A stretch of 64,000 nucleotides of DNA from Nitrosopumilaceae archaeon (GTDB lineage: Archaea > Thermoproteota > Nitrososphaeria > Nitrososphaerales > Nitrosopumilaceae), in assembly GCA_965207375.1 (NCBI GenBank), contig OZ242274.1, forward strand, positions 352,001 to 416,000, read 5' to 3'. A program made the position numbers and the translations under genes. Below are positions 1 to 5,511 of this stretch, in pieces (position 1 is the stretch's first letter; each line of letters opens with the position of its first letter). The notes under the pieces are model-generated. The model was not told the DNA's origin and made no database searches. It worked only from the letters and a program-made list of their open reading frames with translations.

Positions 1-1551
1 TTCTTACTGAAAAATTTGATCAAATGGATAAACAAATTAAAGATCTACAAAAAGACAATCATCTAAAAGATGTAAAAAGTGAACAAGTGATTGCAGAAAA
101 TAAACAGCTAAAAGAAGAAATGGTTCAACTAAAAAAACTCATAGCAAAGCTGCAAAAGAAAAAAACAAGATCCAGTCATGTCAGTAGCTATAACACCAGA
201 GAGTACAAGGGATACCCAAAGATCAAAAAACAAAAGACACAGCCAAAATATACACAGCAAGAATCTGAGACTAACAATCTAACCATAGATCACAAGTTTT
301 GTCCACAATGTGGTAATGCTCTTGCAGATTCATCAAGCAAATACACCAGAAACGGTGAATCAATAATAGACGGCAAATGGTCTAACGTCAATATGACCAT
401 TGTAGGCAGATACTGCAAAAAATGTGCACAAATGCAATATGCAAAACCTGTTGACTTTTTGTCCAATGAAAAATTTAGCATCACTATAATGGCAAGAATT
501 TCTACAATGAGACACCTGACTATATCGTATGGCAAAATACAGAAACTCTTGCAGATGTTTTACGGCAAAAATATGGCAATCTCTACACTAGAAAGACTTG
601 ATGCGCAAGCCTCAAAATGCCTAGAACCGCTCTACTATTCGCTTCTTGATGAGATTACCAAGGCAAAAATCGTAGGAGGTGATGAAACAGGATGGTATCT
701 AAACGGCAAACTATGCTGGGCATGGGTGTTTCATTCGATATACACGGTAGTATATCACATCTCACAATCTAGAAGCAAAATGGTATCTGAGACGTTTCTA
801 AAGGATTTTGAGGGCATACTAATGGGTGACTCTCATCCTGGATGGAGTGTTGCAGACATACTTCAAAAATGCCTGCTACACTATTTCAGGGACATGTACA
901 GAACGCTTGAAAAAAATGACAAAAAAGAATTTCAGAGCTTCTTTGATGAACTATACAAGATACTAAAATCTGCAATAAAGCTTGGCAAAAAACATGACAC
1001 AGTACAGGACATTGCAAAGGGCAGTATAACCAAACTGCAAAAAAGAATCAATGCACTTGCTACAGGAACATATGAGGATGAAGATTGTCTCATATATGTA
1101 AAGCGACTAAAGCGTGAGGGTAACTCTTTGCTGACATTTCTAAAATATGATGGCGTGCCGTACCACAACAACGCAAGCGAGCAGGCAATGCGCATATTTG
1201 CCATAATGCGAAAAGTATTCTACGGTAGTCGCTCAGAGAAAGGCCTCAAAACCACAGAGATACGTCAAAGCATATTTGCCACATGTGAAAGGCGCGATGT
1301 AAATCCGTATCCGTTTGTCAAGGAATATCTGCGTGGCAATATCAAAGAAATCCCCATGCCAAAAGTCACAGTTGCTGCATGATATAATCAAATGTACAGT
1401 GTATAATACACAAAATTTGATGCTGTATGATCATTTCTATAGTCTGGATATGTTCTGTGCCGGTTCATTGTCGTAAACTGCACTAGGGTTTTGCATGCAG
1501 TTTCATGGATCATCTAAAAACCAGAGTAACTTCAGAAGGTCGATCTGTTAC
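1..1551 (+). mobile_element. IS66-family element, right part (left end outside window)
   Basis: IS66 transposase followed by ...GGTCGATCTGTTAC (reverse complement begins GTAA, typical IS66 terminus); HNH-gene codons start immediately after 1551. Confidence 0.8.
24..1382 (+). CDS. IS66-family transposase (frame is open upstream to the window edge, so it may start earlier)
   Basis: Coiled-coil N-terminus, CPQCG...CKKC zinc finger, GDETGW, QKCLLHYFR, HNNASEQAMR and GSRSEKG motifs. Confidence 0.93.
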   Translation: MDKQIKDLQKDNHLKDVKSEQVIAENKQLKEEMVQLKKLIAKLQKKKTRSSHVSSYNTREYKGYPKIKKQKTQPKYTQQESETNNLTIDHKFCPQCGNALADSSSKYTRNGESIIDGKWSNVNMTIVGRYCKKCAQMQYAKPVDFLSNEKFSITIMARISTMRHLTISYGKIQKLLQMFYGKNMAISTLERLDAQASKCLEPLYYSLLDEITKAKIVGGDETGWYLNGKLCWAWVFHSIYTVVYHISQSRSKMVSETFLKDFEGILMGDSHPGWSVADILQKCLLHYFRDMYRTLEKNDKKEFQSFFDELYKILKSAIKLGKKHDTVQDIAKGSITKLQKRINALATGTYEDEDCLIYVKRLKREGNSLLTFLKYDGVPYHNNASEQAMRIFAIMRKVFYGSRSEKGLKTTEIRQSIFATCERRDVNPYPFVKEYLRGNIKEIPMPKVTVAA

Positions 1552-2155: not shown

Positions 2156-3649
2156 GTACTTGTTCACCTATTTTTGAGCATTTTTGGCCCTAAATGTACC
2201 GAACCAGCTCTGCTAGATAATCCTGTCCCAGATTCTTCCAGGTAGTAACACACGTATACAGATTGCCTCTACGCTCCATACTTTTTTCAGATCTGAGACA
2301 TCCACGTATTCTCCTGCACACGACATACTCACGCAGGCTCTGCTCTGCAAGATTGCTTGTAGATGGTATACGAGGGTCTATGACAAACCGGAACATGTCA
2401 GGTATGGCCCGTGACAGTTTTGCTACAAATTTACCCACAATTTCATCATTGGCATACCTTTTGACAAGGTTACGTGTTCTTTTTTCCAATTGTACAGCAT
2501 ATGATTCTCTGTAATCAGGTGGTTTGTCTAGGACATGTTTGCCGTCATGGTATATTTTCTGTAGGCATTGTAGTGTATTTTTTGCAATTTTAGAATCTGG
2601 ATTCTTTTGTGATATTGTTTTGATTTCACGTATTAGGTGCGCGTTACATCTCTGGATGATATATCTGCGGTATGGAGGCCATCCGTCACAGGTAATGATT
2701 ATATCTTGTGAGTCACCTATTATTTCCTTGAGTACGTCTGCTCCTCTGCTGGGATTAATTATATAGAAATTCTCACTTGTAATTGGATTATGAAACGTCC
2801 ACAACCATATAGTCTTTCCATGCAGTCGCTCTGATGTCTCATCTGCTATCAGAATCTCGGCTTCCTGTATCTTTTCTTTTATCTCATTTGCAGGCACAAA
2901 TAACGCATCAGAGACTGTATCTATGATGTTTTGAATACCTCCTTCAGATATTTCGATTCCACGTCTTTTCATGGCCTCCTTGTTCATACGTACCGGCATG
3001 CGATGTATGTGATTATCCATTATCTCCTTTATCACTTCATTTCCAAACTGACCCTTTTTTGGAATGTCAACCTCGGGTGTAATGTCAGTAGCTCCACAGC
3101 AGTTGCAATGATACCCATGAATCTTGTGCTTGCAAGTATGTGGAGGAGGAGTTTTCACAATATCAGTTATTATCCTGATTTTGGTGTCTGTATGGTGTAT
3201 GTCTTGAGAACCACACTTGGTACACGTGTCTAATTTGTGCTCTTTTTCTTCATCTACTTTGACCTTGCGGGCTACACCTGTGCGACCAGGTTGTCCTCCC
3301 TGTTTTTTTCCAGTAGATTTTTTGTTCTCTGCACGTATTTTGCGGTCCTGCTTGCGTGTAATGGAATCCTTAGATGGAGGAGTATTGGAATTGTCATGAT
3401 AGTTGTCACGTTTGGTAAGCTCTTGAATTTTTTTATCTTTTTGTAGTAGGAGGTCATCTTTTTGTAATATGATTTTTTGTAAACTTGATACTAGAGATTC
3501 AAGAAGAAGGACTTTTCGGTGTTCCTTTTTGTATGCACTTTTCCAGTTGATGGTACTCATTATACAACTTGTGAGTCAGAATGATTTAGATCTGATGGTG
3601 ATCAAAATTTGAACAAATGGTGAAATTGTAGACACCACGTGAACAAGTA
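2156..3649 (-). mobile_element. IS66-family element (single ORF); its terminal C is displaced to 5071 by the IS110 insertion
   Basis: TIR GTACTTGTTCAC at 2156-2167 and GTGAACAAGTA (3639-3649) plus C (5071); 8-bp target duplication GACTCTTT at 2148-2155 and 5072-5079. Confidence 0.92.
2190..3560 (-). CDS. IS66-family transposase
   Basis: NSNTPPSKD, GKKQGGQPGRTG, CTKCG...CNCCG, ADETS, QRCNAHLIRE and TSNLAEQSLR motifs. Confidence 0.95.
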   Translation of the reverse strand: MSTINWKSAYKKEHRKVLLLESLVSSLQKIILQKDDLLLQKDKKIQELTKRDNYHDNSNTPPSKDSITRKQDRKIRAENKKSTGKKQGGQPGRTGVARKVKVDEEKEHKLDTCTKCGSQDIHHTDTKIRIITDIVKTPPPHTCKHKIHGYHCNCCGATDITPEVDIPKKGQFGNEVIKEIMDNHIHRMPVRMNKEAMKRRGIEISEGGIQNIIDTVSDALFVPANEIKEKIQEAEILIADETSERLHGKTIWLWTFHNPITSENFYIINPSRGADVLKEIIGDSQDIIITCDGWPPYRRYIIQRCNAHLIREIKTISQKNPDSKIAKNTLQCLQKIYHDGKHVLDKPPDYRESYAVQLEKRTRNLVKRYANDEIVGKFVAKLSRAIPDMFRFVIDPRIPSTSNLAEQSLREYVVCRRIRGCLRSEKSMERRGNLYTCVTTWKNLGQDYLAELVRYI

Positions 3650-3752
3650 TCCATGTGCCATATTATTAAAAATTCCCCACGTTTTTAATCCCGACATGTA
3701 TCCATGTGCCATATTATTAAAAATTCCCCACGTTTTTAATCCCGACATGTAT
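3647..3752. repeat. Exact 51-bp tandem duplication covering the IS110 right end
   Basis: GTATCCATGTGCC...CCCGACAT at 3647-3697 and 3698-3748, followed by GTAT. Confidence 0.95.
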
Positions 3753-3905
3753 GGCATAGCCTAATTCTAATTTCCAAACCGCAAGGGTCCAAAGATAAAG
3801 AAGCGAATACTTATCCATCCGAGTCAATCGCAATGATTACTCATTATCATTCTTCATTCTTTTATCAGGCATACTGCAATTACAAAACGAGGCAACAAAC
3901 TAGGT
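3700..3905 (-). ncRNA. Candidate IS110/IS1111 bridge (seek) RNA
   Basis: Non-coding region 3' of the recombinase; stem/internal loop/stem at 3794-3866 whose loop strands match the element's circle junction; boundaries approximate. Confidence 0.55.
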
Positions 3906-3912
3906 CTGTTCC

Positions 3913-4941
3913 TCATACATGTTCCCGCAACCGGGTATCCTGACTGTAATTTGTAATAAACTCTCTTCTCTCCTTGAGCATTGTGTGAATCATTCGTAAC
4001 ATCTTAGAAGCAGCAGCAACTGTTGCCTTTGATGTTCCTCTCTTTTTTGCAATCCTTATGAAAAATTTTGAAATATCAGAATTTGGTGCACACCTTACAT
4101 GAGACAGGACACTTTCTACTAGAACCCATCTGCATATGTTGCTTCCAGTATGTGTTATGTGTCCATAGTGTACCGTGTTTCCTGATGATCTAACCGATGG
4201 AACCACACCAATATACGAGCACAGCTTGTGTGATTTGACAAATCTTTCAATTCCGTCTATTGTACATGATATCACCAGTGCAGTATATGCTCCAACTCCT
4301 GGAATGCTTTGTAGTAAAGTTGCATCTTCATTTTCCTTTGCTGCCTGACGTATTCTGGCATCAGACTGGAGTATTTTGTCATTGATGAACGTAATTATAT
4401 CCAAATACGCATTTATCCTATAGTCATTTATTGCTCTGACCTGTGCAAGCCAAGGCGTGTAAAATGGTGCACCTGAGGGCTGGATTGATTTTTGTAGTAA
4501 AATTCCATGGACTGAATTTTTCAACCCTGTTCTGTGACGGACCAGAGTATATCGATAGTTTACCAAATCCCTGTTGTCCATGTTTTGTGCTGAGGGCACG
4601 TGGCACGGTATAGTGTATCCTCCTCTGAGTAAATCTGCTAGAATTTTAGCATCTACCTTGTCTGTCTTCTTTTTGGATTCTGCAATGAGTCTATTCATAC
4701 GAGGATTGGACAGTATGACATCTAGGTGTAACTTGTCTCTTATTTGAAAAAATGCAGCCTTCCATACAGATGAGGATTCAATTACTAGTTTTGAATTTGG
4801 ATGTATGTATCCTAGGCAATCCTTGATGTCCTCTGGATTGTTTCGTATCTTCTTGTTGGCCAGTTCATTACCGTCTGCATCCATGATAGATATCTGAATG
4901 GTCTTTTTGTGAACGTCTAGACCGACAAAACAGGGTTCCAT
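3913..4941 (-). CDS. IS110-family DEDD recombinase/transposase (likely start MEPCFVGLD at 4941)
   Basis: GLDVHKK, VIESS and KTDKVDA catalytic D/E/D/D; SIPGVG; YIGVVPSVRSSG serine motif. Confidence 0.95.
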   Translation of the reverse strand: MEPCFVGLDVHKKTIQISIMDADGNELANKKIRNNPEDIKDCLGYIHPNSKLVIESSSVWKAAFFQIRDKLHLDVILSNPRMNRLIAESKKKTDKVDAKILADLLRGGYTIPCHVPSAQNMDNRDLVNYRYTLVRHRTGLKNSVHGILLQKSIQPSGAPFYTPWLAQVRAINDYRINAYLDIITFINDKILQSDARIRQAAKENEDATLLQSIPGVGAYTALVISCTIDGIERFVKSHKLCSYIGVVPSVRSSGNTVHYGHITHTGSNICRWVLVESVLSHVRCAPNSDISKFFIRIAKKRGTSKATVAAASKMLRMIHTMLKERREFITNYSQDTRLREHV

Positions 4942-4990
4942 AGATACCCTCAATTTTACGGTTTTGTGTTTGTTTGCATTGGTGCTTGAG

Positions 4991-5021
4991 CGGGATCTTG
5001 TAGAACGGGATCTTGTAGAAC
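4991..5021. repeat. Exact 15-bp tandem duplication in the IS110 left non-coding end
   Basis: CGGGATCTTGTAGAA x2. Confidence 0.9.
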
Positions 5022-5511
5022 TTGGACTACTGCCATCATCTAATTTCCTTGATCGGGGCACATATGATTACGACTCTTTAAAGTTTGATAGCAAGACTCA
5101 CGTTGATCACGTGATTCCGTTTGATTACATCGGCGATACGAAAATGTGGAATTTGGTTTTGTCCTGTCAAAAATGTAACTGTGAAAAGCTTGGTAACCTG
5201 CCTCCCTGCTACTTTGTCAAAAGACTGACAAATCGCAATAAAAAATTTAAAAAAATAACTAACGAAGAATTAAACAAAAGCAATGACCGGAAAACTAAAA
5301 AGAACATGAAGGACATAAAGGAGATGCTAGACATGGAGGGCAAAGAGAATCTTGACTGGCATTATGCAAATGCAACCAACCATGGATATCCCATATTGAA
5401 TAACTTTCCAAAAAAAATCAAACGAATTATTTAAAAATATTATACAGACTAAATTGGATGTAAAATTTATGATTTTGTTATTTTTTATGCATGCTAATAT
5501 ACAATCACAAA

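Follow-up and report, generated by a model that had tools for sequence, protein, structure and literature searches.

Does the non-coding end of an archaeal insertion sequence encode an RNA that would guide its own recombinase and, if so, where is this RNA aimed? This question is raised by a 64,000-nucleotide stretch of DNA from a Nitrosopumilaceae archaeon (GenBank assembly GCA_965207375.1, contig OZ242274.1, positions 352,001 to 416,000; hereafter the window), in which a first-pass annotation had noticed, downstream of an IS110-family recombinase gene, a stem-loop resembling the donor-binding loop of a bridge/seek RNA with a TA core. Our analysis favors, with a probability of about 0.86, the reading that an IS1111-type IS110 element encodes at this position a DEDD recombinase together with a two-loop bridge/seek RNA of about 156 nt, which targets the end of an IS66-family element at a TA dinucleotide. 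Unless indicated otherwise, features are given in window coordinates and are read on the minus strand.

The boundaries of the element were deduced from uninterrupted copies of its target and from other copies of its own left end within the same genome. The eight IS66 right ends that carry no interruption all terminate in ...GAACAAGTAC, with unrelated sequence beyond, and the junctions in the window read ...GAACAAG-TA-[TCCATGTG...CATATGAT]-TA-CGACTCTTT, the outer brackets enclosing the IS110 element. Comparison of the two therefore places the element body at 3650-5068, flanked by the duplicated TA core (3648-3649 and 5069-5070). Insertion has separated GTA from C in the terminal repeat of the IS66 element (GTACTTGTTCAC), and this C, the last base of the repeat, is displaced to 5071. 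Moreover, the 11 left-end copies found in the genome all start at the same base, and GTA precedes 10 of them. The target itself is an IS66-family element (2156-3649) whose transposase (2190-3560) matches Pfam PF03050 (E 2e-33) and whose own 8-bp target duplication, GACTCTTT, is found at 2148-2155 and 5072-5079; the target site including the core can be written G-TA-CTTGTTCACG. Genome-wide, 56 sites match GTACNTGTTC[AC]C, and the 12 commonest variants listed (48 sites) all correspond to GTACTTGTTCAC.

Consistent with an IS110-family insertion, a 2-nt core is present on each side, and neither a long target duplication nor terminal inverted repeats are seen. The left end is short (127 nt, 4942-5068) and the non-coding right end, in which the guide RNA is located, is long (263 nt, 3650-3912, or 212 nt minus a duplicate described below), which is the layout of the IS1111 group. 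By direct reading, a subterminal inverted repeat of 7 bp is formed by ATGTGCC (5057-5063) and GGCACAT (3653-3659, and again at 3704-3710 in the duplicate), a length that falls at the lower limit of the 7-17 bp given for IS1111 elements in Durrant 2024 (PMC11208160); only 5-6 bp (CACAT/ATGTG) are present in many relatives. Because of these boundaries, joining the element ends across TA yields the circle junction CACATGGA-TA-ATCATATG, the same junction as the one proposed in the first-pass annotation, from which the boundaries used here were derived independently.

The recombinase open reading frame (ORF; 342 aa, 3913-4941) begins with an ATG at 4941, its frame being open back to a GTG at 5061, and ends with a TGA stop codon at 3913-3915. 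Both IS110 Pfam domains are found, each above its gathering score (PF01548, E 2.6e-23; PF02371, E 1.4e-18), and the protein reaches 221.9 bits with the NCBIfam model NF033542, 'IS110 family RNA-guided transposase' (cut-off 140). Alignments were likewise obtained to ISCro4 (PDB 9t56, E 1.6e-9) and IS621 (8wt6, E 1.1e-7), two bridge recombinases of solved structure. The alignment to ISCro4 (9t56_A) pairs GLDVHK with GIDVSK, VIESS with CMEAT, KTDKVDA with KTDAVDA and RSSGN with YESGS, and the motifs GxDxxK, E, KTDxxDA and SG line up with the solved bridge recombinases. Judged by these sequence features, the protein is a member of the IS110 family carrying the DEDD motifs. The aligned Asp, Glu, Asp and Asp, together with the C-terminal Ser-Gly, are what we take to be the catalytic residues.

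To evaluate the putative RNA, relatives of the protein were sought in 401 genomes of the class, 47 of which gave matches at E <= 1e-40. Thirty loci were returned and 26 of these were oriented and analyzed; the remaining four (L056, L058, L059, L066) are contig-cut, partial or stop-rich and were dropped before the counts, and an RNA was later matched in L058, L059 and L066. Left-side counts are based on 23 of the 26 elements, the left end not having been found by pattern in L060, L062 and L063. The second pattern match was taken as the right end in L037, L042, L048 and L060, three of these being outer copies of a duplication and the first match in L048 being spurious. Each loop strand was compared with the flanks or ends of its own element, using the flanks or ends of the other elements as control (20,000 permutations), according to the rule of Durrant 2024 (PMC11208160) that the left guide equals the top strand plus core and the right guide equals the reverse complement of core plus right side. 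In all 26 elements, two modules are located 3' of the ORF and overlap its end.

A covariance model (R1) built from the RNAs of these 26 elements gives a single match in the window, at 3792-3947 (97.9 bits, E 1.1e-18), and this match, along with helix covariation, defines the predicted bridge/seek RNA of 156 nt and two modules, which starts within the last codons of the recombinase ORF and overlaps its stop codon. Four matches are present in the whole genome, each directly 3' of an IS110-homologous reading frame and one of them degenerate, and 19 of the 151 genomes sampled from the family contain matches, with up to 21 copies per genome; overall, R1 gives 42 matches in 40 sources, representing 35 distinct sequences. 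When these 35 are aligned, 92.4% of the helix cells are paired, as compared to 82.5% in shuffles and 35-48% after sliding the partners by 1-3 columns, and compensatory changes on both sides occur in 18 of 25 helix pairs. This alignment was fitted to the model and is biased towards structure; in the unfitted MAFFT alignment, 12 of 16 pairs were already seen to covary. G-U pairs, possible on the recombinase-sense strand but not on the opposite one, make up 151 of the 863 helix cells (17.5%). The minimum-energy fold of 3792-3947 has a z-score of -2.65, with 4 of 200 shuffles being equally stable. A search of 3400-5300 on both strands against Rfam 15, with E up to 10, returned only MIR396 and sn2903, both at chance level, well short of the gathering scores and outside the RNA.

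The first module (3864-3944) corresponds to a target-binding loop. The first-pass annotation had found no convincing target loop and had doubted the word TTTTGTA; the loop is located directly upstream of the donor loop and overlaps the stop codon of the ORF, and TTTTGTA turns out to be its left-target guide. The module is closed by an outer helix (GUCAGG 3939-3944/CCUGAU 3864-3869), followed by a middle helix (UUGC 3927-3930/GCAG 3874-3877) and an inner hairpin (3888-3915) that contains the stop codon; helix 2 shows changes on both sides at all four of its pairs. On the 5' strand, before the hairpin and within the last ORF codons, the right-target guide GGGAACAUGUA (3916-3926) complements the top strand TA-CTTGTTCAC, agreeing with its own site at 9 of 11 positions, or 10 of 13 when two helix bases are included. 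Among the 26 relatives, the longest words shared between this guide and the element's own right flank sum to 149, whereas permuted pairings give 100.8 +/- 4.9 and none of the 20,000 reached the observed value. On the 3' strand, after the hairpin, the left-target guide UUUUGUAAU (3879-3887) is identical to the G of the left flank, TA and the first left-end bases; as it has the sequence of left flank plus TA, it would pair with the bottom strand. Over the 5 nt before the core, left-target guides agree with their own left flanks at 80 of 115 positions (23 relatives; permuted 31.2 +/- 5.0; 0/20,000 reached), and the identity extends over 9 of 9 positions in L040, L046, L052, L054 and L064. The segment complementary to the top strand thus stands 5' of the one complementary to the bottom strand.

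The second module (3805-3859) is the donor-binding loop, with a closing helix (GAAUG 3855-3859/UAUUC 3805-3809) and an inner hairpin (3820-3843). Helices 4 and 5 are paired at 98.3% and 97.1%, three pairs in each having changed on both sides. The words reported in the first-pass annotation are located as it had placed them, ATGGATAA at 3811-3818 and ATGATAA at 3844-3850, and the inner stem that it had read, GAGTAATC/GATTGACTC within 3820-3843, is reproduced by the minimum-energy fold. Its outer stem (GAAG 3852-3855/CTTC 3799-3802) is likewise in place and in the fold, but finds no significant support from covariation: 4-9 bp of complementarity are seen in 35 of 35 distinct relatives, and 2601 of 20,000 permutations reached its covariation, whereas the closing helix GGAU/AUCC (GAAUG/UAUUC in the window) carries compensatory changes. 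The GAAG/CUUC stem, of the GAUGAAG/CUUCAUC type, is kept as a possible alternative to the covarying helix.

Similar results were obtained for the guides of the donor loop. The left-donor guide AUGGAUA (3812-3818), on the 3' strand of the module, equals the right end CATGGA followed by TA. It agrees with the element's own right end at 173 of 182 positions (26 relatives; permuted 151.1 +/- 3.0; 0/20,000 reached), its variants ATGGATA, ATAGATA, ATGGGTA, ATGGATT and AAGGTAA vary in step with the right end, and the match between loop word and right end that had been noticed at the outset is accordingly beyond chance. The right-donor guide AUGAU (3846-3850), on the 5' strand, complements left-end bases 1-5 (ATCAT, 5064-5068), with agreement at 101 of 115 positions (23 relatives; permuted 85.2 +/- 2.7; 0/20,000 reached). 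The 6/7 match originally proposed for ATGATAA stands in part: the 5-nt pairing of AUGAU is conserved, and the two core positions are non-complementary in relatives. A TA core is found at 22 of 26 right junctions. Two further donor-loop candidates were discarded by eye, namely that the loop bases after the core form a 'handshake' with the right flank (the first two bases matched in 3 of 16 elements) and that the left-end motif GCAAACAAACAGATTA is a second donor guide (it does not vary with the right-end variant).

Taken together, two internal loops are present, one strand of each loop corresponding to one DNA strand of target or donor and the other to the opposite DNA strand, with covariation between loop and DNA, as is characteristic of bridge/seek RNAs. 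The protein family, the solved homologues and the covariation of loops and ends support the assignment of the originally noticed stem-loop to the donor-binding loop of an IS1111-type RNA. The signal of the guides is carried by relatives with different targets. An element 73% identical to that of the window, present in six occurrences in a Nitrosopumilus metagenome-assembled genome (MAG) of the same family as the window genome, has five right junctions, of which three read TA-TGAGTTCACC, one TA-CGAGTTCACG and one TA-CGTGTTCAGC. A single short element accounts, with its two inverted-repeat tips, for at least four of these junctions, and one locus has a copy in each tip, the two copies being oppositely oriented. 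Hence the clade aims at transposon tips of the GTAC type. The natural variation of guides among relatives mimics guide reprogramming. As a separate observation, the right flank of L048 (TA-ACTGCGG...) is identical to what stands after TA where this element encodes its left-target guide, and by its sequence L048 appears to have inserted into the relic of a related guide-RNA gene.

These results suggest a model, built on analogy with IS621 and the IS1111 seekRNA elements, in which the element would excise as a circle with the junction CACATGGA-TA-ATCATATG. The RNA would be transcribed and bound by the recombinase; on the 5' strand of its donor loop AUGAU would pair with the first left-end bases, and on the 3' strand AUGGAUA would present the sequence of the right end and TA. 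The RNA-bound recombinase would then align the circle junction with the target and catalyze the exchange of strands at TA, and this exchange would set the element down where it is found, with GTA of the IS66 end on one side and C on the other.

Several observations weigh against this model and have to be considered. The case for a guide RNA rests on comparison of DNA sequences, and the related sequences compared are not independent of each other, which inflates the significance of the permutations; in addition, the right-end terminus was chosen by hand in 4 of the 26 elements. Within the window itself, the right-target guide has two mismatches in 11 positions to the occupied site, and the left-target guide matches only G-TA-AT, although GTA is all that it needs, because the bases to the left of that G lie outside the IS66 repeat and differ at each site. 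Two mutually exclusive closing helices are possible for the donor loop, and the right-donor guide lacks complementarity to the TA core in this clade. Helix 3 pairs at only 73.9% in the model-fitted alignment, probably as a consequence of a one-column misalignment. Finally, the 268-nt right end folded as a whole is about as stable as its shuffles (z +0.92), although the 156-nt RNA is unusually stable; the long-range fold of this full right end was rejected as misleading. Two properties of the window copy, its being the sole full-length one in the genome and its duplicated right end, also count on this side and are dealt with below.

The alternative that survives best accepts the anatomy described above and holds that the window copy is an immobile relic, its RNA gene having been conserved only through recent insertion; we consider this possible, if on balance unlikely. 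The other 10 left ends in the genome are truncated fragments. No other right ends were found in the genome by sensitive blastn, nor by regular expression near the 10 left-end fragments. A 51-bp tandem duplication in the right end is a further indication that the window copy may be inactive. Contigs of four DNA runs break at 3649 and 5071, and these contigs, which cannot reveal rare forms, contain no joint, empty site or circle junction; a loose contig end at 5071, one sequence in two runs, leads into the flank of the left-end copy at genome position 48530. On the other hand, the ORF is open with its conserved motifs aligned, multi-copy relatives have RNA scores in the same range as the 97.9 bits found here, the two termini and the subterminal repeat have remained intact, and the duplicated terminus is complete in its outer copy. 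On these features of its sequence, the element appears intact and may be active at present.

Guides acting as single-stranded DNA hairpins that pair with the cleavage sites, as in IS200/IS605-like elements, are very improbable. It is true that covariation alone cannot separate an RNA from single-stranded DNA of the same strand. However, the solved complexes of this recombinase family contain RNA, the module lies not at the element end but 81-144 nt further in, and the G-U pairs described above are frequent among the helix cells. Furthermore, the module is co-oriented with the ORF and overlaps it, and is thus necessarily part of the 3' end of the mRNA. An ordinary 3'-UTR or terminator structure whose likeness to the ends is due to chance can hardly be entertained as an explanation of the stem-loop. 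The words are indeed short (5-8 nt), the sequence is A+T-rich and the right end, folded whole, shows no unusual stability; however, each of the four loop strands varies in step with its own flanks or ends in 23-26 relatives (0/20,000 permutations each) and the loop bases are positionally conserved while the helices show compensatory changes.

Beyond the guide RNA itself, the ends of the element display further features. The duplication of the window copy consists of two tandem 51-bp units (3648-3698 and 3699-3749), each terminating with GGCACATGGA-TA, the terminus of the right end, which is complete in the outer unit. A duplication of 166 bp is found in L042 (about 2660-2830), with its junction inside the DNA encoding the left-target guide, and L060 carries a 15-bp duplication of the right end. 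In all three elements the duplication junction is exactly right-end-TA. The internal site of the window duplication, TA-CATGTC, resembles the TA-CATGTT specified by the right-target guide. The duplications may be footprints of the recombinase on look-alike sites in the element's own DNA; replication slippage is the alternative.

An A/T box, TTAATAA in the window (3663-3669, with a second copy at 3714-3720), points out of the right end at 16-22 nt from the core. Its consensus TTATAAA is present in 26 of 26 elements, 16-22 nt from the right-end terminus and with purine-rich sequence just upstream; the A+T fraction at positions -22 to -16 amounts to 0.85-1.00 (at least 0.96 at six of the seven positions), whereas that of flanking positions is 0.31-0.50. 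By its sequence, this box is a candidate archaeal promoter element of the TATA/BRE type, which on the circle would start transcription across the junction, a few bases into the left end. If so, it would represent the archaeal counterpart of the bacterial junction promoter. In the integrated state, the window box would read towards the start of the IS66 transposase at 3560.

Some 30 nt into the left end, there is an internal motif, UAGAUGAUGG (5033-5042), that repeats the donor loop's 5' strand in the same orientation. Over 9 nt, the words shared between motif and donor-loop strand sum to 150 in 23 relatives (permuted 99.7 +/- 6.0; 0/20,000 reached), and the motif tracks the donor loop better than the left-end terminus does; this covariation extends to L051, L052, L061 and L064, where motif and loop alike depart from the complement of the left-end terminus. 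The motif could be a second site of RNA-DNA pairing, on the bottom strand, or a leader mimic for autoregulation of the recombinase mRNA. A clade-specific variant of the system that combines an extra donor-strand site, a TATA/BRE box firing from the circle junction and duplications left by the recombinase on pseudo-targets is offered as a conjecture, and we doubt that it will hold in its entirety. No published description of the first two of these features was found, and follow-up work would be best directed at them, namely the TATA-type box and the donor-strand copy in the left end.

Regarding the surroundings of the locus, two IS66-family transposase genes are found within 3.6 kb (3-1382, plus strand; 2190-3560, minus strand), which identifies the start of the window as an insertion-sequence cluster. 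Both the IS66 and the IS110 element lie inside a broken HNH-endonuclease gene, which the IS66 insertion split into halves at 1908-2155 and 5072-5434 (plus strand); reading this gene across the 8-bp duplication restores ...CFYCNDSLKFDSKTHVDHVIPF.... The genome, at 4.3 Mb, is above all relatives listed (0.6-3.9 Mb). Contig C1 measures 2.16 Mb with 38.2% G+C, and contigs C2-C4 measure 2.14 Mb in total with 36.7-36.9% G+C; all 23 tblastn segments obtained for the recombinase are on C1 and none on C2-C4. One further copy, L018 (C1:47218-48530), is degenerate and chimeric: it is close to the window element in the left end and the N-terminal half (88% DNA and 68% amino acid identity), and its C-terminal half (43% amino acid identity) and donor loop are those of a paralogue at C1:625432-626619.

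The mechanism discussed here is already known from the IS621 bridge RNA and the IS1111 seekRNA, and the protein family is already labelled RNA-guided; the conceptual gain is therefore small. No description of archaeal or thaumarchaeal bridge RNAs was found in the literature, although the supplements of Durrant 2024 and Siddiquee 2024 may list archaeal elements; two sources on archaeal IS110 elements (10.1101/2024.06.21.599552 and PMC13343696) treat, in their accessible parts, the proteins only. What the present locus adds is a natural archaeal bridge/seek RNA decoded in full, with both loops, four guides, core, target and circle junction, and with covariation spanning a clade of ammonia-oxidizer genomes, some members of which carry about 20 copies. 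For testing, the clade provides candidates of two sorts: naturally occurring guide/target pairs, by the dozen, and recombinases of mesophilic archaea that are compact, at about 330-345 aa. It also indicates that insertion directed by a guide, with the tips of a different transposon family as target, occurs in archaea too, where it may limit or rewire IS66 elements.

Insertion of this kind has a bacterial parallel. IS4321 and IS5075, members of the IS1111 family, reportedly insert at a fixed position into the terminal inverted repeats of another transposon family (Partridge and Hall 2003). The targets of these elements are the 38-bp repeats of bacterial Tn21-family transposons. The window clade, by comparison, targets the GTAC tip of archaeal IS66-family repeats and of their miniature derivatives.

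The closest named relative in the plasmid collection is ISHvo9 of Haloferax volcanii (pHV4, L067; 33% identity). Like the window element, ISHvo9 is an archaeal IS110-family member with a motif resembling a donor loop (GAAG-9 nt-hairpin-CAUAGGUGAAU, by eye, L067:1085-1160); unlike it, this loop is located upstream of the ORF, in an IS110-type layout. The last 11 nt of the ISHvo9 motif, CATAGGTGAAT, recur about 220 nt downstream of the ORF (L067:2418-2428), presumably at the right end. R1 scores only 4.0 bits on ISHvo9 (E 6.5), and its matches to ISHvo9 and to an IS110 locus of Allorhizobium (E 3.6-6.5) are not significant, so no homology of the RNAs is claimed for either.

IS621 (Durrant 2024; Hiraizumi 2024; PDB 8wt6) shares with the window element a homologous recombinase and an RNA whose two internal loops serve target and donor recognition, respectively; in each loop one strand equals left side plus core and the other complements the right side. 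In IS621, however, the RNA is encoded upstream of the recombinase gene, as part of the left end, and CT serves as the core; in the window RNA the order of the guide strands is reversed in both loops, and pairing of the right-donor guide with the core is absent.

The closest resemblance is to the IS1111 group, for which ISEc11, ISKpn4, ISPa11 and ISPst6 are given, in Siddiquee 2024 (PMC11187229) and Durrant 2024 (PMC11208160), as elements with a downstream seekRNA or bridge RNA; this likeness is drawn from descriptions rather than from direct comparison of sequences. Shared features are the long non-coding region 3' of the recombinase gene, the short left end, the subterminal inverted repeat, RNA words matching both target strands, a duplicated 2-nt core and, as reported for IS1111 seekRNAs in PMC11187229, the 5' location of the segment complementary to the top strand. 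Distinct from this group are the archaeal host, a subterminal repeat of only 5-7 bp, a target loop that begins inside the ORF and contains its stop codon and, for the clade as a whole, the A/T box of archaeal TATA type and the copy of the donor strand in the left end.

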